64,000 nt of DNA from an uncultured Candidatus Saccharibacteria bacterium (GCA_934717805.1 CAKUZG010000001.1:2806-66805); one strand, 5' to 3'; positions 1 through 64,000 are shown, counted from the first letter of the stretch. The notes: a model not told the origin generated them from the letters alone. Program-made: numbers and translations.

Positions 1-92
1 AAAAGATCACTGATATTATTGGTGCACGCCTACCAATGGAAGAAGTTAAATTCGATCTTATTGATAAGATTATCCGTAAAATCAAGCTTTAA
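1..92 (+). CDS. 3' end of an unidentified CDS entering from upstream (...KITDIIGARLPMEEVKFDLIDKIIRKIKL*)
   Basis: Frame 3 is open from the window edge to TAA at 90-92. 29 residues are too few to name a product. Confidence 0.4.
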   Translation, partial: KITDIIGARLPMEEVKFDLIDKIIRKIKL

Positions 93-181
93 TTCTTGCA
101 AAAATATAAAAAATATGCTAGAATTGAAAAGTCCATTAATGTGGAAGAACTTCAAAAGTTAGCTACTGAAAAGTAGCATAT

Positions 182-258
182 GCACCTGTAGCTCAGCTGG
201 ATAGAGCGTTGGCTTGCGGAGCCAAAGGTCGTAAGTTCGAATCTTGCCAGGTGTACCA
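182..258 (+). tRNA. tRNA-Arg (anticodon GCG), CCA encoded
   Basis: Cloverleaf read by hand: acceptor GCACCTG/CAGGTGT (G1-U72 wobble), D-loop AGCTGGATA, anticodon loop TTGCGGA, T-loop GTTCGAATC, then A-CCA. Confidence 0.9.
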
Positions 259-315
259 TAGAAAAAGCATCAGAGAAATCTGGTGTTTTTTCTATTTTAG
301 TAGTATAATAAACTT

Positions 316-1833
316 ATGGTTAAAGGAATGAGTGAGAAATATCAAAAATTAATTAAAAATAATCAGCAAAATCGAAAAATTTTGATTTTTTCGGCGTTAA
401 TAGTTTTAGTTATCGCAGTCATTTCTTACTGTGCTTTTTATATGATTAACAAAAATAATCAACAAAAATCTACTCCTCAGGCTGAAAACTCTCAAGAAGT
501 TTCTAAATATTATTTTAAAGATTCAAAATATGAAGGAATAGCTTCGAAATTTATCGAAAGGAAAACTAAAAAAGAAGAAGCTTCTTTGGAAATTCCAGTA
601 ACAAAAAACTCGAAAATCAATGATTTTATTAATAAAAAAGTTAAAGAAATCGATGATACTTTTCGTGCAGATGCCAAAAAACCGTTTTTTGATAAGCCTG
701 CAACTGAAAAAATGAGCTATCAAGTTTACTACAACCAAGATAATCTTCTTTCGTTAGTTCTTTCAGTTAAACAAGATACTCATGGAGCAAACTTAATTGA
801 TGAAAATCTTTTTTGGACTTTTGATAAAAATAGTGGTGATATTATAAAATTAAGTAGTTTCTTAACTGATAAGGATAAATTTAAACCAAAAGTCCTAGAA
901 ATTTTTAAAAATAAAGTTTTCGAATTTTTAAAGAGTAAAAATCTAGAATATTCGAAAGATATTTTGGATGAATTAACTTTCGATAATCTTGAGAATTTTA
1001 TTATTTTAGATAAGCAAACTATTGATTTTCCATTTTCTCGATCGGATATTTTGCCGTCTAGTTATGGTGATATTCAAATTCAATTAAAAATTAGCGAAAT
1101 TTACGAATTTCTACAAAATGATTTTGCGCGCAAAACTTTTGATGTTCCAGAACCACCAAAACCTAAAGCTGTAGCTCCGAAGCCAGCACCACAACCCGCA
1201 CCAGTTATTTCAAGAGCACCAGTTGTTTCGGGTAATTGCCCAAATTGTATTGCTATCACTTTTGATGACGGCCCAGGAATTTATACTGATCGACTTTTAG
1301 GATATTTGCGAAATTATAACGCAAAAGCAACCTTCTTTATGATTGGCCCTAACGCTCAACGATATTCGGGCGTGGCTCGACGTGTTTTCGAAAATGGTCA
1401 CCAGATTGGAAATCACACATGGTCGCACCCTTCATTAACTAGCTTACCTGACGCTCGAGTTCAAAATGAAATTTCATCTACAAATAATGTGTTACAAAGT
1501 ATAACAGGCGTTCGACCACAAGCTCTCCGCCCTCCTTATGGAGCAACAAATTCTCGTGTTCAAGCTAATGCTGCTGCTCTCGGTATGGCTTCTGTTTTGT
1601 GGTCGGTAGATACTCGCGACTGGGCAGATAGAAATTCGGCGGTGGTTTGTAACCGTGCAGTTTCGAACGCTCGTTCGGGATCGATTATCTTATTACACGA
1701 CATTCATCCAACTTCGGTTGATGCTGTTCCATGTATTTTGCAAAACCTAACATCTCGCGGATTTCGTTTTGTAACGGTTAGCCAACTTTTGGGCGGATTA
1801 CAGGCTGGTCAGATCTATTATTCCGGAAAATAG
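316..1833 (+). CDS. membrane-anchored polysaccharide/peptidoglycan deacetylase (PdaC-like: N-terminal TM, DUF3298/DUF4163-like region, Pro-rich linker, NodB domain)
   Basis: NodB motifs ITFDDGP and HTWSHP, plus LLHD near the C-terminus. An N-terminal hydrophobic helix is present. The architecture matches B. subtilis PdaC from memory. Confidence 0.85.
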   Translation: MVKGMSEKYQKLIKNNQQNRKILIFSALIVLVIAVISYCAFYMINKNNQQKSTPQAENSQEVSKYYFKDSKYEGIASKFIERKTKKEEASLEIPVTKNSKINDFINKKVKEIDDTFRADAKKPFFDKPATEKMSYQVYYNQDNLLSLVLSVKQDTHGANLIDENLFWTFDKNSGDIIKLSSFLTDKDKFKPKVLEIFKNKVFEFLKSKNLEYSKDILDELTFDNLENFIILDKQTIDFPFSRSDILPSSYGDIQIQLKISEIYEFLQNDFARKTFDVPEPPKPKAVAPKPAPQPAPVISRAPVVSGNCPNCIAITFDDGPGIYTDRLLGYLRNYNAKATFFMIGPNAQRYSGVARRVFENGHQIGNHTWSHPSLTSLPDARVQNEISSTNNVLQSITGVRPQALRPPYGATNSRVQANAAALGMASVLWSVDTRDWADRNSAVVCNRAVSNARSGSIILLHDIHPTSVDAVPCILQNLTSRGFRFVTVSQLLGGLQAGQIYYSGK

Positions 1834-1873
1834 TCTTTATTTCAATCTATAATTATGATAAAATAGGAATATT

Positions 1874-1963
1874 GGAGAGGTGGCCGAGTGGTTGAAGGCG
1901 CACGACTCGAAATCGTGTATGCGGGCAACCGTATCGGGGGTTCGAATCCCCCCTTCTCCGCCA
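1874..1963 (+). tRNA. tRNA-Ser (anticodon CGA), long variable arm, CCA encoded
   Basis: GGAGAGG...CTTCTCC acceptor, anticodon loop CTCGAAA, long extra arm, T-loop GGTTCGAATCC. Confidence 0.92.
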
Positions 1964-2064
1964 CGAAAGTAGCTCGCGTTTGCGGGCTTTTTTCGTATTT
2001 ATTGACATTAGCTTTAGACTATGTTATAATGCAACTATAGTTCTTTAGAAACGAGGTTAGAAAA

Positions 2065-12193: not shown

Positions 12194-12652
12194 ATGAAAA
12201 TGAAAATTATTGCGATTGGTAAAAAACATGAAAAATGGGTTGCGAGTGGAATTGAAATGTTCGAAAAACGGTTAAAAAAGCCGTTTGGGGTGGAATGGCA
12301 GATTTTGGCGCATTCGAATTTTGCCGAAGAAAAAGCTCGTGAAGAAGAAACTTTGCGAATTTTAGAGAAAATTAAGCCGAATGATTTTGTGATTTTACTC
12401 GATGAGCGCGGTAAAAATATTTCTAGTCCAGAATTTGCGAAATTGCTTTCGAACGGTTTTGTAAATTCGCAAAATTTTGTGATTGTGATTGGTGGCGCTT
12501 TCGGGGTTACGGAAGAGCTTCGAAAACGTGCAAATTTTGTTTGGAGTCTTTCGAAATTGGTTTTTCCGCACCAAATTGTGCGACTAATTTTAATTGAACA
12601 GATTTATCGGGCGCAAGAAATTTCTTCTGGCGGAAAATATCATCACGAATAA
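12194..12652 (+). CDS. rlmH: 23S rRNA (pseudouridine1915-N3)-methyltransferase RlmH (SPOUT)
   Basis: Length about 152 aa, IIAIGKK start, IGGAFG and C-terminal YHHE, all typical of RlmH. Confidence 0.88.
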   Translation: MKMKIIAIGKKHEKWVASGIEMFEKRLKKPFGVEWQILAHSNFAEEKAREEETLRILEKIKPNDFVILLDERGKNISSPEFAKLLSNGFVNSQNFVIVIGGAFGVTEELRKRANFVWSLSKLVFPHQIVRLILIEQIYRAQEISSGGKYHHE

Positions 12653-17666: not shown

Positions 17667-17790
17667 ATCTTCTCCTTCTGCCAAATGAGTTGCAGGAATC
17701 CTCTTCGAAAATCTTTCGAAAATAATTTCTACCACACATTTGGCGTTAATTTTACCCTTTTATTATAGCATTTTCAATTAAAATTAGCAA
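17667..17790 (-). promoter_or_regulatory. sigma70-type promoter plus about 95-nt structured leader of pnp (copy A of a duplicated module)
   Basis: -35 TTGCTA (17785-17790), 17-nt spacer, -10 TATAAT (17762-17767). Leader helix GCCAAATG...CATTTGGC abuts the SD. 38 nt including the SD and start match copy B with one mismatch. Confidence 0.65.
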
Positions 17791-30562: not shown

Positions 30563-30569
30563 ATAACTA

Positions 30570-30598
30570 TTGACAAAAGTATTTTTATGTGGTAATAT
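30570..30598 (+). promoter_or_regulatory. near-consensus sigma70 promoter
   Basis: TTGACA (30570-30575), 17-nt spacer, TAATAT (30593-30598). Confidence 0.7.
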
Positions 30599-30630
30599 AG
30601 TAATTACCTCTTTTCGAGGAAATTATAGCC

Positions 30631-30924: not shown

Positions 30925-30946
30925 AAAACCTTTTTAAACTTTTCTT

Positions 30947-30967
30947 GGTCTCGAAAGAGGCCTTTTT
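30947..30967 (+). terminator. rho-independent terminator
   Basis: GGTCTC-GAAA-GAGGCC followed by TTTTT. Confidence 0.75.
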
Positions 30968-30969
30968 AT

Positions 30970-30998
30970 TTGCTAAAAATTTATAAATTTGGTATAAT
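30970..30998 (+). promoter_or_regulatory. promoter of the 31009 gene (short SD-less leader)
   Basis: TTGCTA (30970-30975), 17-nt spacer, TATAAT (30993-30998). The ATG is 10 nt downstream with no SD. Confidence 0.55.
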
Positions 30999-44468: not shown

Positions 44469-45518
44469 ATGATTAATATTAAAGGTGTGGGCGATTTCTT
44501 CTCGTTAGATATTGGAACGAACGCGATTCGTGCCGTCCAGCTTTCGAAAGCTGGAGAAAATTCTTGGAATTTAATTGGTCTTGGATATACTCCAGTTGAC
44601 CCTCAATTAGTTTTGAGTAATTCTGATGAAAGTCGTCGTCGTTTGGGAGAAATTATCTCAACGATGATCGGTCAGAGCGATATTAAAACGAAAAATGTAG
44701 CGATTAGTCTTCCGTCCCAAAAGACATTCACAACAATTTTCGAAGTTCCTAAACAAGATATTAGGGAATTGCAAAAAAACGTTAGTTATCAAATCGATCA
44801 GTATATTCCAATGGCTATCGATGACGCTCAGGTCGACTGGGCTCTTCTTGGAGATTCTCTTTCGAATCCAGATTCATTAGAGATTCTACTTGCAAGCACT
44901 TCTAAAAATTTCAGCGAAGAAAAAATGGAATTTGTTGAAGGTTTAGGATTAAATGTTGTTGCAAGCGAACCTGATTCACTAGCAATGACTCGAGCGCTTT
45001 ATTCTGGTAATCAAAATGGTCAGGCGCAATTGATCATTGATATGGGTGAAATTTCAACCGATCTATCAATTGTATACCAAGGCGCACCAAGGCTTGTTCG
45101 AACAATTCCAACAGGAATTTCAAGCTTAGTTAAATCTGCAACACAAAACTTAAATATCAAAGAAGATCAAGCGCGACAATTCATTATGAAGTTTGGTCTT
45201 GCTCAAGATAAACTTGAAGGTCAGGTTTTTCATGCTATTGAAATTACACTTGAAAACTTCGTCCAAGAAATTGCTAAGTCGATTAAATTCTTGGGAACAA
45301 AATATCAAAATGTTCAAGTTGGATCAATTGCACTTTCAGGTTATTCTGGAATTGTACCGCAAATGCCTGAATATGTTTCTTCAAAGACAGGAATTCAGTC
45401 ATACTCAGCAAATCCATTCCAAAATATAAATGTCCCAGCAAAATATCAACAACAAGTTGCAAGTGTTGGTAATGAATTTGCCGTAGCGATTGGTTTGGCA
45501 GAAAGGAACAATAAATAA
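44469..45518 (+). CDS. pilM: type IV pilus assembly protein PilM
   Basis: Actin-like ATPase fold pattern (LDIGTNAIRAVQL) and position at the head of the pil operon. Confidence 0.88.
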   Translation: MINIKGVGDFFSLDIGTNAIRAVQLSKAGENSWNLIGLGYTPVDPQLVLSNSDESRRRLGEIISTMIGQSDIKTKNVAISLPSQKTFTTIFEVPKQDIRELQKNVSYQIDQYIPMAIDDAQVDWALLGDSLSNPDSLEILLASTSKNFSEEKMEFVEGLGLNVVASEPDSLAMTRALYSGNQNGQAQLIIDMGEISTDLSIVYQGAPRLVRTIPTGISSLVKSATQNLNIKEDQARQFIMKFGLAQDKLEGQVFHAIEITLENFVQEIAKSIKFLGTKYQNVQVGSIALSGYSGIVPQMPEYVSSKTGIQSYSANPFQNINVPAKYQQQVASVGNEFAVAIGLAERNNK

Positions 45519-45519
45519 T

Positions 45520-46287
45520 ATGGTTGAAATTAATCTTTTGCCAGATGTTAAGCGCGATCTTCTTAAAGCGCAACGCCTTCGAAATATTGTTACTTTCGCA
45601 TCAATTATTATTGGTGCTGCAATGCTTGGTGGTGTAGTTTTGCTATTTTTAGTAACGCAAGGTCAACAAATTTTTATGGGCTTGAAAAAAGATGAAATTT
45701 CAAGCAAGTTTAGCGATATGCAAAAAATTCAAGATGGTGAAACTGCAGCAACGCTTCGAAATCAGCTTAATGCTATTCAAAAAATCCGTGAGGCATCTCC
45801 AAATGTTTCACGATTGCTTAGCACAGTTATTCCGGCGATTAAAACTACCGGCGAGAATGAAGTTAAGTTTTCATCAGTAAATTACGACCCAGGAACACGG
45901 ACGGTTTCAGTTGAAGGTGAAACAAGTAATGGATTTACTGCTCTTGAAGCTTTCATTAAGACAATTAAATATTCTCAAGTAATCTATAATGGTGGTGATT
46001 CAAAATGTAAATCATCAGATATCGAAGATAATGCTGATATCTGTAAGCTTGCAGAAGAAGGTTCTGTCGTGCGAACTGAAAGCTCAATCGGCGTAAATGA
46101 CCAAGGTCAAAATATCCTACGCTTTGCTGTAAAATTTAAGATTAACGAAGACGCTCTAAAATTCTCATCAAAAGATTTTGCAATCAAATCTCTTGGAAAG
46201 AAGAATGTTACAGACTCAACAGTTCAAATTCCTGCTGGAATCTTTACACAAAGCTCAAAGAAAGACTCTGAAAAGGAGAATAAATAA
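45520..46287 (+). CDS. pilN: PilN-like pilus assembly protein
   Basis: INLLPD start followed by a TM helix. The start ATG comes 1 nt after the pilM stop. Confidence 0.75.
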   Translation: MVEINLLPDVKRDLLKAQRLRNIVTFASIIIGAAMLGGVVLLFLVTQGQQIFMGLKKDEISSKFSDMQKIQDGETAATLRNQLNAIQKIREASPNVSRLLSTVIPAIKTTGENEVKFSSVNYDPGTRTVSVEGETSNGFTALEAFIKTIKYSQVIYNGGDSKCKSSDIEDNADICKLAEEGSVVRTESSIGVNDQGQNILRFAVKFKINEDALKFSSKDFAIKSLGKKNVTDSTVQIPAGIFTQSSKKDSEKENK

Positions 46288-47126
46288 TGGGTGAAAATAA
46301 AGAAGTAGCTTTTTTGAAACGAAACGCTATCAATAAAGCGAATCAAACAATGTTTTTGGCTGTTGCTGGTGCAGCATTAATTGCTGGTGCTTCAGTAGTT
46401 GGAATGGTTTATCTTTTCAGAATTTATAGCTTTAACACTAAAGTTTTGACTGAACAAGATAAAAGTATTTCAACAATTGTACAAAATATTGAAAATATTA
46501 ATGATCTAAAGAAACGACTAGGATCTTTGGAGACTAACGAAAACCTAAATAAACAAAATTTGAAATCAAATGCTGATGATGGTGGTTTACGTGTTATTGC
46601 TGACGCGCTTCCAGATAGCGAAAATGCATCAGGACTTGGTTCGGCTTTACAGAAGAAGATTTTTTCTGACGGTATAATGCTTGATTCATTTAATATTGAA
46701 TCTTCAGATTCGAATAGCTTAAGTTCATCAAGTTCAGTATCGACAAGTTCTTCTAGTGAGAGTAGTAGCATTCCAGATGGTGTAAAAGATATTCAATTTA
46801 CGGCATCAATCTCTTCATCTTTCCCAAATGAAGGATCACCAGAGGATATTAAAAACCGAGAAACTGCAGCTTATAACAATATCGTTAATACTCTTCAGAA
46901 GATGGAAAAATCCATCCGTGCTATTAACGTCACAAGCTTTAAATTCGAACGATCGATAAATAAATTTACGTTAACGCTTGGTGCTAAAGCTTATTACTAT
47001 CCTAAATATGTAATGACGCTTGACAGTAATAAAGTTAAAGCTGATGATGCTGCGAACCCAGCTACAACTACAAGTGGAACTGGCACGCAGACTAATTCAA
47101 CAACAACATCTGGAGGATCAAAATAA
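46287..47126 (+). CDS. PilO-like pilus assembly protein with a Ser-rich segment
   Basis: Single TM, coiled coil, position after pilN, ATGA coupling. Confidence 0.55.
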   Translation: MGENKEVAFLKRNAINKANQTMFLAVAGAALIAGASVVGMVYLFRIYSFNTKVLTEQDKSISTIVQNIENINDLKKRLGSLETNENLNKQNLKSNADDGGLRVIADALPDSENASGLGSALQKKIFSDGIMLDSFNIESSDSNSLSSSSSVSTSSSSESSSIPDGVKDIQFTASISSSFPNEGSPEDIKNRETAAYNNIVNTLQKMEKSIRAINVTSFKFERSINKFTLTLGAKAYYYPKYVMTLDSNKVKADDAANPATTTSGTGTQTNSTTTSGGSK

Positions 47127-47344
47127 TGAAGAAAACTGATATCGCAATGATTGTTTTGATTGCCGGCATTAGCGTTCTTGTGTCATATCTTGTGATTAAC
47201 TCGATTGCACAAGGTGGTTTTAGTGAACAAAGCTACGAAGTTAAAACAACCAAACCAATTTCTAAGGAATATGTTGAACCAAGCAACGAAATCTTTAATG
47301 GTGACGCTGTTAATCCAACAGTTCAGGTTAATATTGGCCAATAA
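47126..47344 (+). CDS. small single-pass membrane protein of the pil operon
   Basis: 72 aa with an N-terminal TM helix. Coupled start. Confidence 0.5.
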   Translation: MKKTDIAMIVLIAGISVLVSYLVINSIAQGGFSEQSYEVKTTKPISKEYVEPSNEIFNGDAVNPTVQVNIGQ

Positions 47345-47376
47345 TAAGAAAACAATAATTTTTTAGAAGGAATATA

Positions 47377-49146
47377 ATGACATTACTAACCAACGATATT
47401 CAAGATAGGCTTGCAAAACTCCTTGTAGAAGAGGGGCTTGTTCAAGAATCTAAAATTGAGTTGGCTATTAAAGAGGCTGGTTTGAACAATCAGTCTCTAA
47501 TGTCGTATATGATTGAGCATAAACTTCTAGATAATGAAATTCTTGTTCATGCAACTTCTCACGTATCAGGAATTCCATATGTGAATCTTGAGAATACAAC
47601 AATTCCGCAAGAAACACTCGATTTAATAAATGTTGATATTGCGGAAAGAAATATGGCTGTGCCGATCGCGGAAGTACAGGGAAGAATTGCTGTGGCAATG
47701 CTTGATGCGACAAATATTCAGGCTGTCGATTATCTTTCGAGTTTAATTCAGCGTCCATTAAAAGTATTTATGGCGAGCCAAAACTCCATTAAACATGTTT
47801 TGGATCAATATAAAACCGACCTTTCAGGTGTGGATGCTTTAGCCGAAAATGTTGATGCGCAAAAACAAGCCGAGGCAGAATCGAAACGTCAAGTTCAGAC
47901 GATTGTTCAAGATTCACCAATTTCGAAAGCATTAAATACAATTTTGGAATATGCGGTTCGTGCAAAAGCATCTGATATTCACATCGAGCCACTCGAGAAA
48001 TCTCTAAAAATTCGCTGTCGAATCGATGGTGTTTTGCGTGAGATAATGAATCTTCCAAAAGCGATCGAACCAGCTTTGATTTCGCGAATTAAAATTCTTT
48101 CAAACTTAAAAATCGATGAACACCGAATTCCGCAAGACGGTCAGTTTGCTGTGGCTGTTGGTGGAAAAGAAGTTGACCTTCGTATCGCTATTTCTCCAGT
48201 TGTTTGGGGTGAACAGGTGGTAATTCGTTTACTCGATAAAACAGGCAATTCATTTAATCTTGAAGATATGGGTTATGCTGGCCGAGCACTTCGAACAATC
48301 TTAAAGGGAATTTCAGCACCAAACGGAATGGTATTGACCTCTGGTCCAACGGGTTCTGGTAAGTCAACATCGCTTTATGCTTTGATTAAAAAGATCAAAG
48401 ATGATTCGGTGAATATTATCACACTTGAAGACCCAGTTGAATATAAAATGGATGGAGTTAATCAGATTCAAGTGAACCCTGAAGTTGGTCTAACTTTCGC
48501 TGCTGGTCTTCGCTCGATTTTGCGTCTTGACCCAGATATTGTGATGGTTGGAGAAATCCGTGATAGTGAAACTGCAAACCTAGCTGTGCAGGCGGCGCTT
48601 ACAGGGCACTTGGTTTTCTCGACACTACACACTAACTCTGCTGCCGGAATTCTTCCACGATTGATTGATATGGGAATCGAACCCTTCTTGATTGCTTCAA
48701 CGGTGAACACGATTATTGGTCAGCGTTTGGTGCGTCGGGTTGCGCCAAAACGAAACACTTATCAATCTTCACCACTTCAAACACAAAGTATTATTGAAAC
48801 CGTTGGTCACTTATTGCCAAAAACACCAGAAGAAGTTGAAAAGGTTTCTGCTGATCTTGGATATAAAAATCTACCGCTCGCAAACCAAAAGTCTTATACT
48901 CTTGTAAAAGGTCGCGATACGCCGCAAACGCCAGGTGGATATCAAGGCCGTGCAGGTTTGTATGAAGTTATGGAGGTGACGGAAGAAATTCAGCAGTTAA
49001 TCATTAAACATGCAACTTCACATGAAGTTCAAAAAGTTGCAATGAAACAGGGAATGATTACAATGCGACAAGATGGTTATCTTAAAGCATTAACAGGAAT
49101 CACAACAATAGAAGAAGTAAACAGGGTTGCGTCTGATAGCGCATAA
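47377..49146 (+). CDS. pilB: type IV pilus assembly ATPase PilB (GspE family)
   Basis: Walker A GPTGSGKST, Asp box, Walker B, His box (TGHLVFSTLHTN). Confidence 0.93.
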   Translation: MTLLTNDIQDRLAKLLVEEGLVQESKIELAIKEAGLNNQSLMSYMIEHKLLDNEILVHATSHVSGIPYVNLENTTIPQETLDLINVDIAERNMAVPIAEVQGRIAVAMLDATNIQAVDYLSSLIQRPLKVFMASQNSIKHVLDQYKTDLSGVDALAENVDAQKQAEAESKRQVQTIVQDSPISKALNTILEYAVRAKASDIHIEPLEKSLKIRCRIDGVLREIMNLPKAIEPALISRIKILSNLKIDEHRIPQDGQFAVAVGGKEVDLRIAISPVVWGEQVVIRLLDKTGNSFNLEDMGYAGRALRTILKGISAPNGMVLTSGPTGSGKSTSLYALIKKIKDDSVNIITLEDPVEYKMDGVNQIQVNPEVGLTFAAGLRSILRLDPDIVMVGEIRDSETANLAVQAALTGHLVFSTLHTNSAAGILPRLIDMGIEPFLIASTVNTIIGQRLVRRVAPKRNTYQSSPLQTQSIIETVGHLLPKTPEEVEKVSADLGYKNLPLANQKSYTLVKGRDTPQTPGGYQGRAGLYEVMEVTEEIQQLIIKHATSHEVQKVAMKQGMITMRQDGYLKALTGITTIEEVNRVASDSA

Positions 49147-49158
49147 AAGGGGAGGAAT

Positions 49159-50226
49159 ATGAATCAAAATTTAAGAATTGAAATTTTACTTGAAGAAATC
49201 GTTCGAAAAAATGCGAGCGACCTTCATTTGCAAGTTGGTTTGCCACCAATGATGCGTTTGGATGGCGTTTTGGCGCCATTTCCAGGTTATAACCCGTTAA
49301 ATGCTGAAGAAGTTGAACGGTTGGTTTTTGCTATTCTTGATGATGACCAGCAAAAAATCTTAATCAAAGATAAAGAATTCGACTTTTCTTTCGCTTTTGG
49401 CGACCTTGGACGTTTTCGTGTGAATGCTTTTCATGAACGTGGAAATCTAGCAGCTTCATTGCGTTTGATTCCAAATCAAATTAAAACAATTGCTGAACTA
49501 GGTATGCCGCCAGTTATTCAATCTTTTGCGGATTTTCCACGGGGATTAGTTTTGGTTACAGGCCCAACAGGTTCTGGTAAATCAACAACTTTGGCTGCAT
49601 TGATTGATAAGATTAATAATGAAAAAGCTCAACACATTATTACAATTGAAGACCCAATTGAATTTACGCATAAATCAAAGCGATCTGCAATTGTTCAGCG
49701 TGAAGTTCACTATGACACATATTCGTTCTCGGCTGCGCTACGAAGTGCACTTCGTCAGGATCCAGATGTTGTTCTAATTGGTGAGATGCGTGATCTTGAA
49801 ACTATTTCTGCAGCGATTACAATTGCTGAAACTGGTCACTTGGTGTTTGCGACACTTCACACCAACTCTGCCTCGCAATCTATTGATCGTATGATTGATG
49901 TTTTTCCACCACATCAACAACCTCAAATTCGTTCACAGCTTGCAAACATTATTCAGGGAATCTGTGCTCAACGTTTGATTCCTGCAATCGGTGGTGGTCG
50001 AGTTGTTGCGGCTGAAGTTATGGTTGCGAACCCTGCAATTCGAAACATTATTCGTGAAGGAAAATCTCACCAACTTGATACAATAATTCAAACTGGTGGA
50101 GATCAGGGAATGCAAACAATGGATCGCACGCTTGTTAAACTTGTACAATCTGGTGTGATTACTTATGATGATGCACGTGAATTTGCAGTTGATTTAGTTG
50201 AATTTGAAAGATTAATGAGAGGCTAA
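49159..50226 (+). CDS. pilT: twitching-motility retraction ATPase PilT
   Basis: GPTGSGKSTT, TGHLVFATLHTN, AIRNIIREGK (PilT signature). Confidence 0.93.
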   Translation: MNQNLRIEILLEEIVRKNASDLHLQVGLPPMMRLDGVLAPFPGYNPLNAEEVERLVFAILDDDQQKILIKDKEFDFSFAFGDLGRFRVNAFHERGNLAASLRLIPNQIKTIAELGMPPVIQSFADFPRGLVLVTGPTGSGKSTTLAALIDKINNEKAQHIITIEDPIEFTHKSKRSAIVQREVHYDTYSFSAALRSALRQDPDVVLIGEMRDLETISAAITIAETGHLVFATLHTNSASQSIDRMIDVFPPHQQPQIRSQLANIIQGICAQRLIPAIGGGRVVAAEVMVANPAIRNIIREGKSHQLDTIIQTGGDQGMQTMDRTLVKLVQSGVITYDDAREFAVDLVEFERLMRG

Positions 50227-50227
50227 A

Positions 50228-51433
50228 ATGAAAAAGTTTTCCTACAAAGTAAAAGATAAAGTTACTGGAAAGATTGTTAAGGGTGAAATTTCGGCAGATA
50301 GCAAGCGCGCTGCTGGAAAAGCCTTGATTGATCAAGGGTATATTCTTGAAGATGATATTTATGAAGTTGGTCAAGAAAACCCACTAAACCGATTTTTGAA
50401 TCGAATTACAACTAAGGATAAAATTGTTTTCACGCGTCAGTTTGCAACCTTGATCGGTGCTGGATTGCCGCTTGCGCAAGCTCTTCGAACGATTTCAGAA
50501 CAAACTGAAAATAAAAAAATGCGTTCAGTTGTTGATGAAATTTTAGCGTCTGTTGAAAGTGGTTCAAGCTTGAAAGATGCTTTTTCGAAATTTCCAGAAG
50601 TATTCGATAAAGTTTATCTTGCTTTGATTGCTGCCGGTGAAATGTCGGGAACACTTGACGAATCTCTTCGCCGTATCGCAACACAACAAGAGAAAGATGC
50701 CGCAATGATGAGTAAAATCCGCGGAGCTTTAACTTATCCGATCATTGTGCTTGTGGTTATTGCGCTTGTAATGGCTTTCATGATGATTCAAGTTGTGCCA
50801 CAGGTTAAACAGCTCTATAAAGATATGCACCAAACTTTGCCGATAGCAACAGAAATACTTATTGGTATTTCAGATTTTATGATTAACTTTTGGTGGCTTA
50901 TCATTATTGTTGCTGGTATTGGTATTTATTTCTTCCGCCAATATCTTAAGACTGAATCAGGGATCAAATTTGCTGCAAACTTCAAACTAAACGTCCCATT
51001 GTTTAGCCCACTTTTTCGAAAGCTTTATATGGCTCGATTCACACGAACTGGTCAACTTTTGCTTTCGACTGGCGTTCAAATGCTTGATATGCTAAATATT
51101 TGTGGTGACGCAATGAATAATGTTGTTGTGAAGAAAAGCGTTGATGATGCAGCTAAACTTGTTCAAGGTGGTAAAAGCCTTTCTGAATCATTAAAAGGTA
51201 AGGATTATATCTTGGATATGGTTCCACAGATGATCAATATTGGTGAACAATCTGGTAAAATTGATGAAATGCTTGGAAAAACAGCTCAAGTTTATGAAGA
51301 TGAGCTGGATGAACAGATTAAAGCGATTTCAACCTTGATTGAACCAATCTTGATGGTTGTAATGGCATTAATGGCCGGCGGTTTGATTGGTGCAATTCTG
51401 TTCCCAATCTACTCATTGGTTACAAAAGTTTAA
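50228..51433 (+). CDS. pilC: type IV pilus platform protein PilC (GspF family)
   Basis: Two T2SS-F repeats, three TM segments, 401 aa. Confidence 0.92.
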   Translation: MKKFSYKVKDKVTGKIVKGEISADSKRAAGKALIDQGYILEDDIYEVGQENPLNRFLNRITTKDKIVFTRQFATLIGAGLPLAQALRTISEQTENKKMRSVVDEILASVESGSSLKDAFSKFPEVFDKVYLALIAAGEMSGTLDESLRRIATQQEKDAAMMSKIRGALTYPIIVLVVIALVMAFMMIQVVPQVKQLYKDMHQTLPIATEILIGISDFMINFWWLIIIVAGIGIYFFRQYLKTESGIKFAANFKLNVPLFSPLFRKLYMARFTRTGQLLLSTGVQMLDMLNICGDAMNNVVVKKSVDDAAKLVQGGKSLSESLKGKDYILDMVPQMINIGEQSGKIDEMLGKTAQVYEDELDEQIKAISTLIEPILMVVMALMAGGLIGAILFPIYSLVTKV

Positions 51434-51450
51434 TTTTCGAAAGGGAGAGA

Positions 51451-52350
51451 GTGGAGAATTTTCTATTAAGTTTATGTTTCGGGGCGCTTGGTGCTGTTTT
51501 TGGCAGTTTTGCTGTAGCTCAAGTTTGGCGTTTGCGTGCCAAGCAACTTCAAGATGAAAAAACTTCTGGCGAAAAAATCGACGCCGCCGAATGGAAAAAA
51601 CTCTGCTCGCTTGTTTCGGTCAGTCCAAAAAATGATCGTTCACACTGTTTAAATTGTGGTTATCAATTAAAATGGTACGATTTAATTCCGGTTATTTCTT
51701 GGCTTTCACTTGGTGGAAAATGTCGAAAATGCCACTCAAAAATTGGCGCAACTGAATTTTTAACCGAAGTTTCAATGTTTGCGCTTTTTGCAATTATTTT
51801 CTTAGTTTTTAATCCACTATCTGGCGCAGGCTTTCCACTTTTTGGATTCTTTCGACTTTTGATTCTGTTTTTGGCATTTATTCCGCTCGCAATTATGTTT
51901 ATTTATGATGCAAGATGGTCACTTCTACCAACTAAAGTTATTTGGGCTTTTAACTTTTTTGCATTCATTTATTGGATAACAGCATTTGCCAACACTACAA
52001 ATGGTTTTAATCTTTTATCGATATTTAACATTGCAATCTCAATGACACTTTTTCCACTAGTTTATTTTGTGTTAGCTAAAATTTCGAAAGAGGAATGGGT
52101 TGGCGGTGGTGATTGGATTTTGGCGATCGGTTTGATTTTTCTTTTACCAAATCAGCCAATCTTTGCAATGCTTTTATTATTCCTTTCGAATTTTGTTGGT
52201 TTAATTTTTGCGCTATTCCAATCAATTCTGCAGTTTAAAAAAATTAAACGGGGAATAAGAATTCCATTCGGTCCAGCCATGATTTTGGCCACATTGATTT
52301 TGTTAATTTTCCAACAATTTTTATTAATTTTTACAAGTTTTATTATGTAA
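51451..52350 (+). CDS. pilD: prepilin peptidase (A24 family) PilD
   Basis: N-terminal CxxC...CxxC (CLNCGY...CRKCHS), polytopic membrane domain with GGGD. GTG start after AAGGGAGAGA. Confidence 0.88.
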   Translation: MENFLLSLCFGALGAVFGSFAVAQVWRLRAKQLQDEKTSGEKIDAAEWKKLCSLVSVSPKNDRSHCLNCGYQLKWYDLIPVISWLSLGGKCRKCHSKIGATEFLTEVSMFALFAIIFLVFNPLSGAGFPLFGFFRLLILFLAFIPLAIMFIYDARWSLLPTKVIWAFNFFAFIYWITAFANTTNGFNLLSIFNIAISMTLFPLVYFVLAKISKEEWVGGGDWILAIGLIFLLPNQPIFAMLLLFLSNFVGLIFALFQSILQFKKIKRGIRIPFGPAMILATLILLIFQQFLLIFTSFIM

Positions 52351-52383
52351 AATTAAAAAGCTTATGGTATAATAGGAGTAATT

Positions 52384-53361
52384 ATGAAAAACTTAAAGAC
52401 GAAAAAAGCTTTTACAATTATTGAAGTGATGCTGGTTGTTAGCATCTCTGGTTTAATGTTGGTAACAATGCTAGTTGGTTGGAATGCTAATATTGAACGC
52501 CAACGCTATAACGATTCTGTGAATACTTTCAAATCGGATATTCAGGGAATTTTTAGTGATGTCGAAAATCAAACAAACGATAAAACTCAACGAATTAATT
52601 GTAATACAAATGGTCCTAATGTCAGAATTAGTAGTAGTAATAAGGGTGGTGTAGCAACCGGTGCAAGTGATTGTATTATTTTAGGTAAATTTATCTCATT
52701 TGGTGGAAATACAGCAGCTAGTCAAAATAGCTATCAGGTTTATGATGTCATTGGTAAAGATATTAATGTTAATCGAGATTGCAACAATAGACCTTGTAAT
52801 AATAATATAGATGCTTTAAGGGCTACAAGGTTTGTTTTAGATGGGGGAAGCAACCGAATTAATGGTCCTAAGGATATGGAACTCCAATGGCGTGCGCAGA
52901 TTAGAAATGTTACAGATAACCGAAGAAGTTCAGGTTTGCGTCGTCGTTTTAGTGGGGGTGCTCCTATTTTAGTTAGATCAACAGATGTAGTAACAGGTGT
53001 TTTAATTTTAAGATCTCCACTAGATAACTCAATAATTGTTTTTGGCGCTCCAGGGGATGTTTCTACAGGAGGTATTCTTAATGATGATATAATAATTCCA
53101 AACTTTCGAAATACTGTTATTAATCAAGATTGGGCTGTTAATAATAATAAAACAGTAAATATTTGTGTTCAGCCTGCTACTTCAGGTAATGTTGTTGGAT
53201 TTAACTTTTTTGGTGGTAGAAACAAGATTGTCAAAATTGGACCTTCAGCATCTTCGGTCGAAATTGCACCACTAGATGGACCAAACGGTTCTTCTTGCGG
53301 TAATGATTCTAGTAGTGGATCTCAGTTTAACGATGTAATAATTAATGGAGCGAACTTATAA
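52384..53361 (+). CDS. type IV (pre)pilin, large
   Basis: Class III signal KKAFTIIEVMLVVSISGLML (E at +5). Confidence 0.85.
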   Translation: MKNLKTKKAFTIIEVMLVVSISGLMLVTMLVGWNANIERQRYNDSVNTFKSDIQGIFSDVENQTNDKTQRINCNTNGPNVRISSSNKGGVATGASDCIILGKFISFGGNTAASQNSYQVYDVIGKDINVNRDCNNRPCNNNIDALRATRFVLDGGSNRINGPKDMELQWRAQIRNVTDNRRSSGLRRRFSGGAPILVRSTDVVTGVLILRSPLDNSIIVFGAPGDVSTGGILNDDIIIPNFRNTVINQDWAVNNNKTVNICVQPATSGNVVGFNFFGGRNKIVKIGPSASSVEIAPLDGPNGSSCGNDSSSGSQFNDVIINGANL

Positions 53362-53960
53362 TGAAAACTCAAAAAGGTGATACGCTAGTTGAAGTTCTTC
53401 TTGCTATGGCGGTTTTTGCTGTAGTAATGATGATTGGGTTATCGACAATGAACAATGGAATGTCGCGAGCTTTAGCAAGTTTACAGTTAACAATGGCGCG
53501 TAATACAATGGATTCGCAGGCCGAAGCTCTGCGTTTTGCAAATGCGGCGTATATTTCAGAATTTCGTTCCGATGGGGGAGCTGTAACTAGTGCGGCAGCT
53601 CGGGTTTGGCAAGATCAGCTAACTGCAGGAGCTCAAGGCGCAGCTACTCCGCTCGATGCTTGTAGTCGTGGCACAAGTGCGTTTGTGCTTTCGCGCAATG
53701 ATTTATCTTACCATAGTGAAGCAATAACAAATGCAGTAACTTATCCGCGAATAGCTTATGGAACTGATGCGGATTCAAATGCAATCACGAATCCAAGTGC
53801 TGGTTATAGGCGATCTGAAGGTATTTGGGTTGAAAAAGTTCACCGAGCTAATACAAATTATTATGATTTTCATATCCGTGCTTGTTGGTCTGCGCCGGGA
53901 AGCAATGTTAATACAACACTTGGAACGATTGTGAGGTTATATGATCCAGCAAGGAAATAA
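53361..53960 (+). CDS. prepilin-type protein (minor pilin-like)
   Basis: N-terminus KGDTLVEVLLAMAVFAV. Confidence 0.75.
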   Translation: MKTQKGDTLVEVLLAMAVFAVVMMIGLSTMNNGMSRALASLQLTMARNTMDSQAEALRFANAAYISEFRSDGGAVTSAAARVWQDQLTAGAQGAATPLDACSRGTSAFVLSRNDLSYHSEAITNAVTYPRIAYGTDADSNAITNPSAGYRRSEGIWVEKVHRANTNYYDFHIRACWSAPGSNVNTTLGTIVRLYDPARK

Positions 53961-54639
53961 AAAAGGTTTTACAATTATGGAATTGATGCTCGCAATGGGC
54001 GTGATTGCTTTTTTGCTGCTTTCGGTTGCGGGCTTAATTATCCAAATGACAAACACCATTACGCGTGGAACAACCTATAAAGATCTAAATGCAGCTTCTC
54101 GAACGATTAATGCAGATCTAACAAAAACATTTAATTCAACATCTGTTCTTGATGGATGGGATGGTCAAAACAATAATAATGAATATTATAGGGTTGTTGG
54201 CGGTTCGGGTGCATTTTGTACAGGCTCGGTGAGTTATTTATGGAACACTAACTTTAGAGATTCAAGCGCATTAATTGTTTATGCTAGAGATAACAATCCG
54301 GTTCGGTTTGTTAAAGTTCGTGATACCGCAAAAAGTTACTGTTCAAACAATGCTCAGAGTACGGTTTGGAGGAATGTTCCTCGCAACGATACAGTTACTG
54401 AAATTTTGAGCAATAATGAAGTTAATCTTCAGCTTCACAGTATATCATTTACTTCAGGAGGGAATTTGATTAGCTCATCTTCAAATCAAATGATTGTAAA
54501 TATCGCCTATGTTTTAGGAACGCCGAATAATGACGACATTCGACTTAATGCTGGAAGTAGAAACTGTGAAGGCAACGTTAAAAGTAATTATTGCGCAATT
54601 AATAAATTTGAGCTCACTGTAAGAACTCTTGGTAGATAA
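53941..54639 (+). CDS. prepilin-type protein (minor pilin-like)
   Basis: N-terminus KKGFTIMELMLAMGVIAFLLL. Confidence 0.8.
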   Translation: MIQQGNKKGFTIMELMLAMGVIAFLLLSVAGLIIQMTNTITRGTTYKDLNAASRTINADLTKTFNSTSVLDGWDGQNNNNEYYRVVGGSGAFCTGSVSYLWNTNFRDSSALIVYARDNNPVRFVKVRDTAKSYCSNNAQSTVWRNVPRNDTVTEILSNNEVNLQLHSISFTSGGNLISSSSNQMIVNIAYVLGTPNNDDIRLNAGSRNCEGNVKSNYCAINKFELTVRTLGR

Positions 54640-57883: not shown

Positions 57884-57961
57884 TGGCGCGCCCGACCGGA
57901 TTCGAACCGGCGATCTCCTCCGTGACAGGGAGGCGTACTAGGCCAGCTATACCACGAGCGC
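57884..57961 (-). tRNA. tRNA-Asp (anticodon GTC), CCA encoded
   Basis: Reverse complement reads GCGCTCG...CGGGCGC-G-CCA. Anticodon loop CTGTCAC, T-loop GGTTCGAATCC. Confidence 0.9.
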
Positions 57962-60992: not shown

Positions 60993-62117
60993 GTGGCGAA
61001 TAAAAATTTACATAACGCCAAAGAATCAAAAAACGATGAATTTTACACACAACTTGAAGATATCGAAAAGGAGCTTTCGCACTACCGCCACCATTTTGAA
61101 GGTAAGGTAATTTTTTGCAACTGTGACGACCCTTATGAGAGTAACTTTTTCAAGTATTTTGTGCTAAATTTTAACACTTTAAAACTCAAAAAACTAATTG
61201 CCACCAGCTATATTGCTTCGCCCGTAGCTTTCAAAGAATTGCCGGCTAAAAAGGGAAATTCATCTTTTGAAGATTTACTCAAGCCTTATAAAATCGAAAT
61301 TGATGAAGTCTATGACCAAAATGGCGATGGTGCGATTAACTTACAAGATGTGAAAGAGATTTTAGAAAAAGCCGAAAAGGGTGGCAAAATGACAAGGCTA
61401 ACTGGTGATGGTGATTTTCGAAGTAGCGAGAGCAAAGAGTTGCTCAAGCAGGCCGATATTGTGGTGACCAACCCGCCGTTTTCGCTGTTTCGTGAATATG
61501 TGGCGCAATTGATTGAATTTAATAAAAAGTTTATTATTTTGGGGAATAATAACGCGATAACTTATAAAGAGATTTTTCCATTAATTAAAAATGGTAAAAT
61601 GTGGCTTGGTTATAGCGCAAATAAAACGATGACTTTTCGTTTGAGCAATCACTACAAACGCTGGAATTATATTGACGAAAATGGTAATAAATATGGCAAT
61701 GTGCCAGCAATTACTTGGTATACAAATTTAGATATTAAAAAACGCCACGAAGAACTGATTTTGGTAAAGAAATATAATCCACTTGATTACCCAAAATATG
61801 ATAATTACGACGCGATTGAAGTTTCGAAAGTGAAAGATATCCCTAAAGATTATGACGGCGTGATGGGTGTGCCAATAACTTTTTTCGATAAGTTCAATCC
61901 TGATCAATTTGAGGTTGTAGGACAAGGACAGGGAAATCTTTTTAGACAAATTTCAGATAAGGGACTTAGGGCTTCGTTTGTTGATAGCTATTATAAATTT
62001 GGTGGAAAAGGAGCTATAAAAGAAAATCACCCAGTTTTAGGATATTATAACAATAATGGTAAGCCTATTATTCCATATATGAGAATTTTAATCAAAAACA
62101 AGAAAGTAGAAAGGTAA
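60993..62117 (+). CDS. N6-adenine DNA methyltransferase, EcoRI-methylase-like family
   Basis: N-terminal SKNDEFYTQ...NCDDP...SNFFKYF and catalytic VTNPPF motif. GTG start after AAAGG. Family assignment is from memory of M.EcoRI-like sequences. Confidence 0.8.
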   Translation: MANKNLHNAKESKNDEFYTQLEDIEKELSHYRHHFEGKVIFCNCDDPYESNFFKYFVLNFNTLKLKKLIATSYIASPVAFKELPAKKGNSSFEDLLKPYKIEIDEVYDQNGDGAINLQDVKEILEKAEKGGKMTRLTGDGDFRSSESKELLKQADIVVTNPPFSLFREYVAQLIEFNKKFIILGNNNAITYKEIFPLIKNGKMWLGYSANKTMTFRLSNHYKRWNYIDENGNKYGNVPAITWYTNLDIKKRHEELILVKKYNPLDYPKYDNYDAIEVSKVKDIPKDYDGVMGVPITFFDKFNPDQFEVVGQGQGNLFRQISDKGLRASFVDSYYKFGGKGAIKENHPVLGYYNNNGKPIIPYMRILIKNKKVER

Positions 62118-62121
62118 AGCG

Positions 62122-63210
62122 ATGAAAATTGAGCTACACAAAATTAAAATAAAAGAGCTGTTTGCTGGTTTCGAAAATGATGAAGAAGCTGGTGTGGTGG
62201 GCTTTGATGGCAAGTTGAATATTCGCCCACCGTATCAGCGAGAGTTTGTTTATAAAGATGATCAACAGCGAGAAGTGATTCGCACTATTCGAAAAGGTTT
62301 TCCGCTCAATATTATGTATTGGTCAAAGAACAGTGATGGCACTTTTGAGCTTTTGGATGGGCAACAGCGCACGATGTCGATTTGTAAATATTTGAATGGT
62401 GATTTTAGTGTTGATGGTGCTTATTTTAATAATTTAACGCTTGAAGAACAAAAGCAAATTGAAGAATACGGGTTGATGATTTATTTTTGCGAAGGTGAAA
62501 CGCGCGAAAAACTAGATTGGTTCAAAATTGTGAACATTGCGGGCGAAGAACTAACGCCACAAGAGTTGAGAAATTCAGTTTATACGGGAAGTTGGTTGGT
62601 TGACGCTAAGCGATATTTTAGTAAAAGTGGTTGTCCTGCACAAGATGGTTATAATAATTATTTGAACAAGAGTTATCTTCGCCAAGAGGTTTTGGAAACT
62701 GTTTTGAAGTGGATTTCTGGCGGAAATATCGAGAACTATATGGGAATCCACCAGCATGACGCAAACGCGAAAGAGCTTTGGCGATATTTTGAAGATGTTA
62801 TGGAATGGGTACAGGCTGTTTTTCCAAATTATCGCAAAGAAATGAAAGGTTTGCCGTGGGGTGAATTTTATAACGAATTCAAAGATCAAGGTTTCGAAAA
62901 GATTGGTGAAGAAAATGAACGGCGGGTTTCGGAACTCTATAAAGATAATGAAGTTACCAAGAAAAGCGGGATTTATCAATATATTCTAACGGATAACGAG
63001 AAATATTTGAGCTTGCGAGCTTTTGATGATGATATTAAAAGTCAAGTTTATGAACAGCAAAAGGGAATTTGCCCAATTTGTCATAAGCACTACGCAATTG
63101 AAGAAATGGAAGCTGATCATATCAACCCATGGAGTAAAGGTGGAAAAACGGTGGCCGAAAACTGCCAAATGCTTTGCAAAAAAGATAATCGCGAGAAGAG
63201 TGATAAGTAA
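62122..63210 (+). CDS. DUF262 (ParB/Srx-like, GmrSD N-terminal type) domain fused to a C-terminal HNH nuclease
   Basis: PPYQREFVY and LLDGQQR motifs (DUF262). C-terminal CPIC...ADHINPWSKGG...NCQMLCKKDN (zinc-finger HNH). Starts 4 nt after the MTase stop. Confidence 0.8.
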   Translation: MKIELHKIKIKELFAGFENDEEAGVVGFDGKLNIRPPYQREFVYKDDQQREVIRTIRKGFPLNIMYWSKNSDGTFELLDGQQRTMSICKYLNGDFSVDGAYFNNLTLEEQKQIEEYGLMIYFCEGETREKLDWFKIVNIAGEELTPQELRNSVYTGSWLVDAKRYFSKSGCPAQDGYNNYLNKSYLRQEVLETVLKWISGGNIENYMGIHQHDANAKELWRYFEDVMEWVQAVFPNYRKEMKGLPWGEFYNEFKDQGFEKIGEENERRVSELYKDNEVTKKSGIYQYILTDNEKYLSLRAFDDDIKSQVYEQQKGICPICHKHYAIEEMEADHINPWSKGGKTVAENCQMLCKKDNREKSDK

Positions 63211-63226
63211 TTTTTATAAAACTAAA

Positions 63227-63253
63227 ATACCGCATAATAAGTGCGGTATTTTA
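63227..63253 (+). terminator. rho-independent terminator
   Basis: ATACCGCA-loop-TGCGGTAT followed by TTTT. Confidence 0.8.
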
Positions 63254-63311
63254 TAAGATGATTATAAAACAACAATATTACACATAACTAAAGGTGTAAA
63301 TGATGTAAAAG

Positions 63312-63388
63312 TGGTGGGCGATAGAGGACTCGAACCTCTGACTTTCACAACGTCAATGTGACGCTCTAGCCAACTGAGCTAATCGCCC
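63312..63388 (-). tRNA. tRNA-Val (anticodon GAC), CCA encoded
   Basis: Reverse complement reads GGGCGAT...ATCGCCC-A-CCA. Anticodon loop TTGACGT, T-loop GGTTCGAGTCC. Confidence 0.9.
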
Positions 63389-63477
63389 GTGGTTTTATTT
63401 TAGCAAAACTTGCAAGAAAAGTCTAGTGGTGATAAAATAAAAGGTAGTTAAAAATATTATTTTCGAAAGGAATCTAA

Positions 63478-64000
63478 GTGGAGAGTAAAGAGGAAAAACT
63501 TTTTAAAATGCGCCACAGCCTTGCACATATTATGGCGGCGGCAATTCAACGAATCTACCCAGATGCGAAGTTTGGTGTTGGTCCGGCTATTAATGATGGA
63601 TTTTATTATGATATTGATTTAGGTGATAATAAAATCTCAGAAAATAATTTTGGTAAAATTGAAAAAGCAATGCGTCGAATTATTGCCGAAAATCAAGATT
63701 TTGTGCGAAGCGAAGTTTCAATTGAAGATGCAATTAATTGGGCGAAAGAAAATAATCAGCCTTATAAATTAGAACTTTTGAATGATTTGAAAAATGCAGG
63801 AACAACTAACGCAAAAATTCTTGCTGAGGGTGATTTTGAACTCGGAAATGGTGCAGAAACAGTAAGTTTTTATACAAACGGAAATTACAAAGATTTGTGT
63901 CGTGGTCCACACCTTTCGAACACTGGCGAAGTTGGTGCTTTTAAATTGATGCGTGTAGCCGGTGCTTATTGGCGTGGTGATGAAAAAAATCCACAAATGC
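63478..64000 (+). CDS. thrS: threonyl-tRNA synthetase, 5' part (runs off the window; apparently lacks the TGS/N1 region)
   Basis: RHSLAHIMAAAI (HxxxH editing/SAD motif), CRGPHL, FKLMRVAGAYWRGDEKN. GTG at 63478 follows AAAGGA; an ATG at 63508 is an alternative start. Confidence 0.85.
   Translation, partial: MESKEEKLFKMRHSLAHIMAAAIQRIYPDAKFGVGPAINDGFYYDIDLGDNKISENNFGKIEKAMRRIIAENQDFVRSEVSIEDAINWAKENNQPYKLELLNDLKNAGTTNAKILAEGDFELGNGAETVSFYTNGNYKDLCRGPHLSNTGEVGAFKLMRVAGAYWRGDEKNPQM

Follow-up and report, generated by a model that had tools for sequence, protein, structure and literature searches.

TTCGAA, a highly over-represented palindrome in a lineage of Saccharibacteria, and its possible role as a tag of self-DNA

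Over-representation of TTCGAA in the window

The question addressed here is why a single six-base palindrome, TTCGAA, should be so frequent in a 64,000-nt stretch of DNA from an uncultured Candidatus Saccharibacteria bacterium (GCA_934717805.1, CAKUZG010000001.1:2806-66805; hereafter the window). The window has 36% G+C and is part of an 85.8-kb metagenomic scaffold with a typical gene content, including a type IV pilus cluster, FemAB, a type IV secretion system-type pilin and many small unknown proteins. An earlier reading, made from the sequence alone, had counted about 190 copies by hand, 29 of them in the first 10 kb, and had set these against 20–25 copies estimated from base composition, an 8–9 fold excess. 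These figures were borne out: the exact count is 192, the number for the first 10 kb agrees, and the mononucleotide expectation is 21.6, giving an 8.9-fold excess. TTCGAA is the top-ranking hexamer of the window, tied with AAAAAT.

1..64000, no strand: TTCGAA, 192 copies by exact count, with Poisson-like spacing

More demanding null models lowered the excess and did not remove it. One hundred dinucleotide-preserving shuffles gave 49.6 ± 6.6 copies with a maximum of 66, and Markov models of orders 1–3 trained outside the sites expected 36–52, with the order-2 model giving an excess of 3.7–4.8-fold. For the 160 copies found in coding sequence, synonymous-codon permutation within genes gave 53.9 ± 6.1 (maximum 72) and codon-order permutation 39.8 ± 6.2. 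Markov models trained on the whole window expected 110 copies at order 3 and 163 at order 4; these values approach 192 because such models absorb the sub-words and pentamers of the motif itself (the sub-words TTTCGA and TCGAAA occur 170 and 154 times). The excess is therefore about 9-fold over composition and 4–5-fold over context-aware nulls. The sequence-only reading had named three outcomes as fatal to its claim, namely nulls that reproduce the count, comparable enrichment of neighbouring words and a far lower exact count. None of these was found; the nulls that do not absorb the motif give 36–54 copies, far below the 190 or so of the hand count.

The enriched unit and its placement

Among the sixteen TTCGNN words TTCGAA alone deviates, the other 15 having the same observed/expected (O/E) ratio as in non-enriched relatives. 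Within the window, TCGA outside TTCGAA occurs at 1.08 times its expectation, there is no half-site excess, and the one-off neighbours of TTCGAA, which the sequence-only reading had proposed as a comparison, lie at 0.3–2.6 times with no comparable enrichment. The octamer TTTCGAAA is by far the commonest octamer, with 90 copies against 2.2 expected (about 1,400 per Mb, O/E about 41), and the next octamer not overlapping it has 32. The enriched unit is nevertheless the complete hexamer, not the octamer. The base before the site is T in 68% of cases and the base after it A in 66%, with no information beyond ±1 nt. This agrees with the flank bias described earlier, but not with the description of the sites as mostly TTTCGAAA, which accounts for 90 of 192 (47%). 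The T..A combination on both flanks is found at 47% of sites here, compared with 13–23% for control cores and 20–33% in other enriched lineages, and the flank bias partly reflects a general habit of T-runs and A-runs in this genome.

The sites ignore the reading frame, as had been claimed from the sequence alone. Coding sequence carries 2.9 per kb (phase 0, 40 sites; phase 1, 42; phase 2, 78), while non-coding DNA carries 3.7 per kb (32 observed against 2.9 expected, an 11-fold excess). The spacing has a mean of 333 nt and a coefficient of variation (CV) of 1.08, with 6 to 20 copies per 4 kb, and the number of spacings of 35 nt or less (19) equals the 19 expected from an exponential distribution. 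The rlmH gene serves as a worked example of the three phases, its five copies having been located correctly from the sequence alone, as had the two copies within 17701–17725.

12194..12652, plus strand: rlmH, with five TTCGAA, of which 12260 is in phase 0 (TTC-GAA) and 12519 in phase 1 (TT-CGA-A)
12313, 12448 and 12550, plus strand: phase-2 sites of rlmH (T-TCG-AA)
17704..17720: pair of TTCGAA 11 nt apart at the 5′ end of the PNPase gene, which is on the minus strand

The PNPase pair (starts at 17704 and 17715) lies directly upstream of the first ATG, and would be within the open reading frame (ORF) if the GTG at 17735 is the start.

Codon choice at permissive positions

The nature of the pressure was further investigated through codon choice, by determining how often the site-forming codon is used where the flanking codons already fit TTCGAA. 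In the enriched genomes (see below), Phe is encoded by TTC in 63% of cases before GAA against 22% elsewhere (phase 0), Arg by CGA in 78–80% of cases in the context TT|_|A against 30% elsewhere (phase 1), and Ser by TCG in 58% of cases in the context T|_|AA against 13–15% elsewhere (phase 2). The odds ratios are 6–10 in all three phases (p 1e-11 to 1e-51). The same tests in five non-enriched relatives gave 10% vs. 27%, 12% vs. 16% and 3% vs. 12%, with odds ratios of 0.2–0.7, and these relatives mildly avoid TTCGAA at permissive codons. The positive, frame-independent pressure at the DNA level which the sequence-only reading had proposed is thus supported by the odds ratios and by the non-coding excess, and it also fits an excess that is confined to certain lineages with mild avoidance in their close relatives.

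Lineages carrying the excess

An identical ribosomal protein S18 was found on human oral metagenome contigs, and the window comes from a Saccharibacterium of the human mouth. The ValS protein of the window is 94–96% identical to ValS of metagenome-assembled genomes, one of them labelled Candidatus Saccharimonas sp., and most other close matches are 50–64% identical and nearly all labelled Saccharibacteria. Ten syntenic 20-kb loci form three species-level clades (A, B and C) with 80–82% mutual identity, and all are enriched in TTCGAA by 7.6–11.2-fold. The nearest sister lineage (L090, L091), with 86% ValS protein identity, 69% nucleotide identity and a similar G+C content, has TTCGAA at only 1.3–1.5-fold, and no excess was seen in the other close relatives L092, L095, L096 and L003, nor in the relatives with 82%, 75%, 73% and 64% ValS identity. 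A separate lineage (L093, L094), with 77–79% ValS identity and 42–44% G+C, is again enriched by 6.3–8.3-fold. The comparison with sister genomes suggested by the sequence-only reading thus places the excess in three sister species and in L093/L094, the nearest sister being without it, and nothing comparable was found in about 25 further Saccharibacteria or more than 50 other bacteria.

When all six-base palindromes were assessed with an order-2 Markov null in 37 Saccharibacterial loci, TTCGAA was the sole recurrent outlier, with four palindromic words exceeding the 3-fold cut in a single locus each. Other palindromes that had seemed hyper-abundant in other Saccharibacteria (GCTAGC, GCGCGC, CCCGGG and GCCGGC) no longer stood out under this null. 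It should also be noted that the non-enriched L090, L092, L095, L096 and L003 show mild avoidance of TTCGAA at permissive codons, with odds ratios of 0.2–0.3, and also avoid TCGA (0.59–0.66-fold), compared with 1.08-fold for TCGA outside TTCGAA in the window, so that the sign of the TTCGAA/TCGA bias reverses between sister lineages.

In a ValS neighbour-joining tree the non-enriched lineages fall between the two enriched groups, which implies either two gains of the excess or one gain and at least three losses. The two enriched groups (the three clades and L093/L094) share 8 of 43 sites. This was not taken as a sign of common descent, as a rough estimate of about 20%, obtained as residue conservation times occupancy, is expected from convergent saturation of permissive positions.

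This distribution also bears on whether the excess is an artefact of composition, codon usage, dipeptide content or assembly. In favour of an artefact are the order-4 Markov expectation of 163 and the seven sites that are tRNA T-loops. On the other side are the 36–54 copies given by nulls that do not absorb the motif, the 11-fold enrichment of non-coding DNA, relatives of the same G+C content and with the same proteins that show no excess, and the recurrence of the excess in independent assemblies across many studies. An artefact is regarded as refuted.

Conservation and turnover of sites

At about 80% identity, pairwise retention of TTCGAA is 58–68%, compared with 29–30% for all hexamers and 18% for other CpG-centred hexamers (NNCGNN). 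Where a site is possible in both species, the second carries it at 79–92% of positions if the first does and at 50–80% if the first does not, and for L098 vs. L099 the occupancy odds ratio is 0.9. As occupancy is nearly independent of the other species, the retention mostly represents a high equilibrium occupancy rather than conservation of particular sites. The site is held at roughly 60–80% of the positions that the protein sequence permits, and fixation in clades A, B and C alike is seen in 13 of the 126 site columns.

Within the clades 21 singleton gains were found against 29 singleton losses, the gains having come from TTTGAA, TTCAAA, CTCGAA, TGCGAA, TACGAA, TTGGAA, TTCGAG and TTCTAA. Turnover per fixed site is about 0.6 for TTCGAA, against roughly 1–2 for most control words. 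Polarisation of substitutions with two outgroups gave 5 gains against 1.7 expected (the sum of opportunities times control rates), which is no more than suggestive given the few opportunities. Gains and losses are thus about equal, and the sites are at a steady state under an ongoing, uniform and weak per-site pressure with log odds of about 2–3. This lineage-specific, genome-wide directional pressure reads the complete 6-bp palindrome, in any phase and in non-coding DNA.

A possible tag of self-DNA

What the sites record is a directional pressure on the whole hexamer; everything beyond this we infer. The sequence-only reading had put forward an uptake signal, a methylated self-mark and the binding site of an abundant protein, and all three stay candidates on sequence evidence. 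The favoured reading, given a probability of roughly 0.4, is that TTCGAA is an analogue of the highly iterated palindrome (HIP) HIP1 of cyanobacteria which tags self-DNA for natural transformation, probably by way of methylation. The pressure would be exerted by a sequence-specific reader that lineages acquire and lose rapidly. A TTCGAA methyltransferase, which would be encoded outside the window and mobile between lineages, is the likeliest candidate. The tag, probably methylated, would mark DNA as self for the type IV pilus/ComEC transformation pathway. Uptake or recombination would favour fragments or alleles richer in tags, and by such molecular drive site-creating changes would spread and site-destroying changes would be replaced. 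An AT-rich tag may also separate the DNA of kin from the GC-rich DNA of the Actinobacteria hosts.

Cultivated Saccharibacteria live on GC-rich Actinobacteria. By composition arithmetic, TTCGAA would be expected about once per 13 kb at 68% G+C. The type IV pilus machinery that had been recognised in the window from the sequence alone was confirmed by Pfam families, and it carries TTCGAA at ordinary density.

44469..54639, plus strand: type IV pilus cluster (Pfam: PilM, PilB, PilT, PilC, prepilin peptidase, pilin-like)

ComEC was not among the genes of the approximately 100 kb of accessible DNA, in which the pilus cluster lies. Saccharibacteria have been reported to be naturally competent, transforming through comEC (PMC10633639). 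In cyanobacteria, methylated HIP1 raises natural transformation more than 100-fold (bioRxiv 10.1101/2024.09.10.611283), and a role as DNA uptake sequence has been proposed for HIP1 with the methylated RAATTY of Campylobacter as precedent (bioRxiv 10.1101/2024.09.10.611283, 10.64898/2026.06.24.733823). TTCGAA-specific N6-methyladenine (m6A) methylation has been documented in Bacteroides dorei (PMC4101878) and in a metagenome-assembled genome of a thermophile (bioRxiv 10.64898/2026.06.24.734251). A role in transformation is plausible because of this competence, the presence of a type IV pilus in the window, the occurrence of m6A at TTCGAA elsewhere and the expected rarity of the word in host DNA.

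Several points weigh against this reading. The known uptake sequences of Neisseria and the Pasteurellaceae are not palindromes and are longer than TTCGAA. No TTCGAA-specific methyltransferase or DNA receptor was found in the approximately 100 kb of accessible DNA, and the sites are spaced randomly rather than evenly (CV 1.08). The per-site pressure is high even at a density of 3 sites per kb, which might not be expected of an uptake drive whose returns diminish. For the same word to occur in two groups, either the reader must have been transferred horizontally or a single origin must have preceded several losses, and the ValS neighbour-joining tree does not discriminate between the two.

Comparison with known systems

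HIP1 (GCGATCGC) and the alternative HIPs of cyanobacteria resemble TTCGAA in being short perfect palindromes that are hyper-abundant in all frames and in non-coding DNA. HIP1 also shares with TTCGAA a 6-bp core with looser outer positions, a retention above background (here, above that of the control words) and a patchy, lineage-specific distribution, and both the cyanobacteria that carry it and the Saccharibacteria are naturally competent. Most cyanobacteria have 300–2,700 HIP per Mb with an O/E of 55–228 (Elhai, PMC4390886); the density of TTTCGAAA falls inside this range, while its O/E lies below it. The word itself is different from HIP1, is AT-rich, has the hexamer and not the octamer as its unit, and occurs in a host belonging to the Patescibacteria, so that TTCGAA is to be regarded as an analogue in a Saccharibacterium and not as HIP1 proper. 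A methyltransferase specific for the palindrome or its core is expected in a genome of the HIP class; the sole methyltransferase seen in the accessible DNA is uncorrelated with the excess of TTCGAA. Individual HIP1 sites are conserved according to Xu et al. (PMC5861425), whereas TTCGAA sites have little or no positional memory. Quasi-periodic spacing at 10–90 kb is a further mark of the HIP class, and the 64 kb of the window cover the short range, where TTCGAA is Poisson-like.

The RAATTY/CtsM system of Campylobacter jejuni provides a second likeness, with a 6-bp, palindromic, AT-rich word that is very frequent in the genome. There the mark of self-DNA is set by an orphan N6-adenine methyltransferase, and DNA lacking it is not taken up; the mechanism proposed for TTCGAA would be of this type. 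RAATTY is degenerate, unlike TTCGAA, and we know of no claim that it exceeds the expectation from base composition. The DNA uptake sequences (DUS) of Neisseria and the uptake signal sequences (USS) of Pasteurellaceae likewise show a genome-wide excess through a directional process, use permissive positions in genes and have lineage dialects, and they serve a competence that depends on the type IV pilus, of which a cluster is also present in the window. However, they are 9–12 nt long, non-palindromic and present at about 1 per kb, with DUS often paired in terminators, none of which is true of TTCGAA, a 6-bp palindrome at 3 per kb.

Alternative explanations

TTCGAA is identical to the recognition site of restriction-modification (R-M) systems of the BstBI/AsuII type. 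A search for such genes, as had been advised in the sequence-only reading, was possible within the accessible DNA and brought up a single type II R-M pair, located in the window itself.

60993..62117, plus strand: full-length N6-adenine DNA methyltransferase of the EcoRI family (Pfam PF13651, E 2.7e-140; PADLOC MTase_II)
62122..63210, plus strand: protein with DUF262 (GmrSD_N) and HNH, a full-length match to a PADLOC type II restriction-enzyme model

All clade-A strains examined have the pair at this locus, and it is also present at 10001–12227 of L187, L188 and L190; the same pair is found on plasmids of several phyla and is widespread in Patescibacteria. One nuclease, 96% identical among the clade-A strains, coexists with three variants of the methyltransferase, which is a mosaic in that two of its segments differ among strains with about 90% identical flanks. 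It would be unsafe to regard these segments as swaps of specificity, as the partner nuclease is 96% conserved in the same strains. The apparently split methyltransferase of L084 (3340–4480, two ORFs) was likewise not accepted as a pseudogene, as the scaffold has a run of N there.

That this pair recognises TTCGAA and determines its excess is very improbable and is not supported by the comparisons made. In its favour, no other R-M system was seen in the accessible DNA, the locus of the pair is conserved in clade A, and its methyltransferase is an N6-adenine enzyme, the known methylation of TTCGAA being m6A (PMC4101878). However, the non-enriched sister lineage holds both genes (methyltransferase 75% and nuclease 87% identical, matched across the ValS, methyltransferase and nuclease hit tables), so that the pair does not explain the excess. 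The 47 loci with methyltransferase homologues of 47–60% identity show none either (133 TTCGAA observed vs. 163 expected), and methyltransferase segments have been swapped among equally enriched strains. Neither GAATTC nor CAATTG stands out in the window. Restriction targets are normally avoided, and an active restriction enzyme would be expected to yield avoidance and not the 4–9-fold excess seen here; the mild avoidance was found in the non-enriched relatives tested. Very short patch (VSP) repair of the Dcm/Vsr type in combination with a 5-methylcytosine methyltransferase, by which T:G mismatches in TTTGAA and TTCAAA would be over-corrected to C:G, has even less to recommend it and is contradicted as a sole cause. 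CpG transitions are indeed the commonest single differences (93 of 146 variable-site differences, or 64%, and 18 of 29 losses), but this share is near the approximately 50% given by neighbour abundance with an assumed transition bias and is not diagnostic. Phase-1 sites (TT-CGA-A) are equally enriched, with an odds ratio of 8–10, and their only synonymous sources, CGT, CGC, CGG and AGA, become CGA by changes other than CpG transitions; a Vsr-like repair therefore cannot be the sole cause. There is no depletion of the deamination products TTTGAA and TTCAAA (153, with a scaled figure of 110 in relatives), and gains have come from many neighbour words.

Two further mechanisms are the main rivals of the self-DNA reading. 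In the methylation-coupled mismatch-repair ratchet described by Elhai for HIP (PMC4390886), methylation of TTCGAA would signal the strand or the correct allele, so that mismatches completing a site are fixed and those breaking one are reverted, the word being a neutral by-product of repair. A pressure that is uniform, independent of position and fed from many neighbour words agrees with this, as does the near absence of positional memory between species, which continual replenishment predicts. The accessible DNA showed neither a TTCGAA methyltransferase nor a MutS/MutL or MutH-like gene, however, and Dam/MutH at GATC in Escherichia coli is not known to us to produce such an excess. Kinetic objections are named by Elhai himself (PMC4390886), and the ratchet is considered unlikely here. 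TTCGAA could alternatively be the binding site of an abundant, lineage-specific dimeric protein, associated with the nucleoid or organising the chromosome, with selection acting on the density of sites. A perfect palindrome that is read whole and a density apparently under uniform weak selection would suit such a protein, and Xu et al. proposed a role in chromosome structure for HIP1 (PMC5861425). Against it are the lack of a candidate protein, the random placement with no regularity of spacing at the visible scale, and the use of the same word in two separated lineages, which fits a mobile methyltransferase or R-M gene better; it is judged to be quite unlikely.

Novelty and significance

Full-text literature searches returned no report of an excess of TTCGAA or TTTCGAAA in any bacterial genome, and nothing on motif excess or relevant methylation motifs in Saccharibacteria. 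To our knowledge highly iterated palindromes have so far been found only in cyanobacteria. For 30 years no function was settled for them, and the link to methylation-dependent transformation is recent. The element described here is HIP-like with a different word, a hexamer as its unit, a different phylum and little positional conservation, and it offers a clean comparison as a second, independent case in a phylum that is host-dependent and naturally competent and has tiny genomes. It is possible, and is suggested only tentatively, that TTCGAA is the first signal for self-recognition or uptake in the Patescibacteria, or candidate phyla radiation (CPR). It would be a methylated, palindromic tag by which these epibionts distinguish kin DNA from that of the GC-rich Actinobacterial host in type IV pilus/ComEC transformation, and it would have spread from lineage to lineage along with its methyltransferase.

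The existence of enriched and non-enriched sister lineages makes the responsible gene searchable by presence and absence. The group is well sampled, with 1,670 sequences in the ValS protein cluster and 6,140 blocks of contigs indexed for S18, and this depth should permit a population-genetic test of drive against selection. If the self-DNA reading holds, highly iterated palindromes would be a general and convergent solution for kin-biased DNA uptake instead of a cyanobacterial oddity. Should the tag promote uptake or recombination, methylated TTCGAA in constructs could also ease the genetics of oral Saccharibacteria and other CPR bacteria.

Further features of the window

Seven sites, of the form GTTCGAAYC, lie in tRNA T-loops (236, 1941, 5150, 5661, 10387, 15467 and 57901). 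These are trivial, being a universal feature of tRNAs, and an Rfam scan of the window found nothing besides tRNAs. Two are given below as examples, together with the longest stretch free of the motif.

236..241, plus strand: TTCGAA in the T-loop of tRNA-Arg
57901..57906, minus strand: TTCGAA in the T-loop of tRNA-Asp
30346..32983: longest TTCGAA-free stretch (2.6 kb), holding a UDG-family gene at 31968–32579 on the minus strand

The length of this stretch is borderline by chance, at about 0.07 after correction for 191 intervals. The UDG-superfamily gene within it is confined at this position to clade A, the syntenic loci of clades B and C being without it, and it may be a recent acquisition. 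An 80-codon ORF called at 10122–10364 by a simple gene caller overlaps tRNA-Leu (10218–10302) and is almost certainly not a gene; it contributes two of the sites tallied as coding. Upstream of the methyltransferase gene lies a 770-nt AT-rich non-coding region (60220–60990) that lacks TTCGAA, ORFs of at least 150 aa and matches in Rfam.

A scan of viral sequences for paired TTTCGAAA gave as the best of the matches listed a 12.1-kb IMG/VR viral contig (L309), which is T4-like (PhoH, T4 RNase H, DUF932) and unrelated to this host; its 17 TTCGAA against 3.7 expected are a selection-biased count. Finally, the window under-represents GTAC (0.26-fold), ACGT (0.34-fold), CATG (0.39-fold), TATA and CTAG, and many 6-mer palindromes are rare in it, with GGGCCC and CCCGGG absent and TACGTA present once. 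A signature resembling restriction avoidance is thus found beside the single hyper-abundant palindrome TTCGAA.

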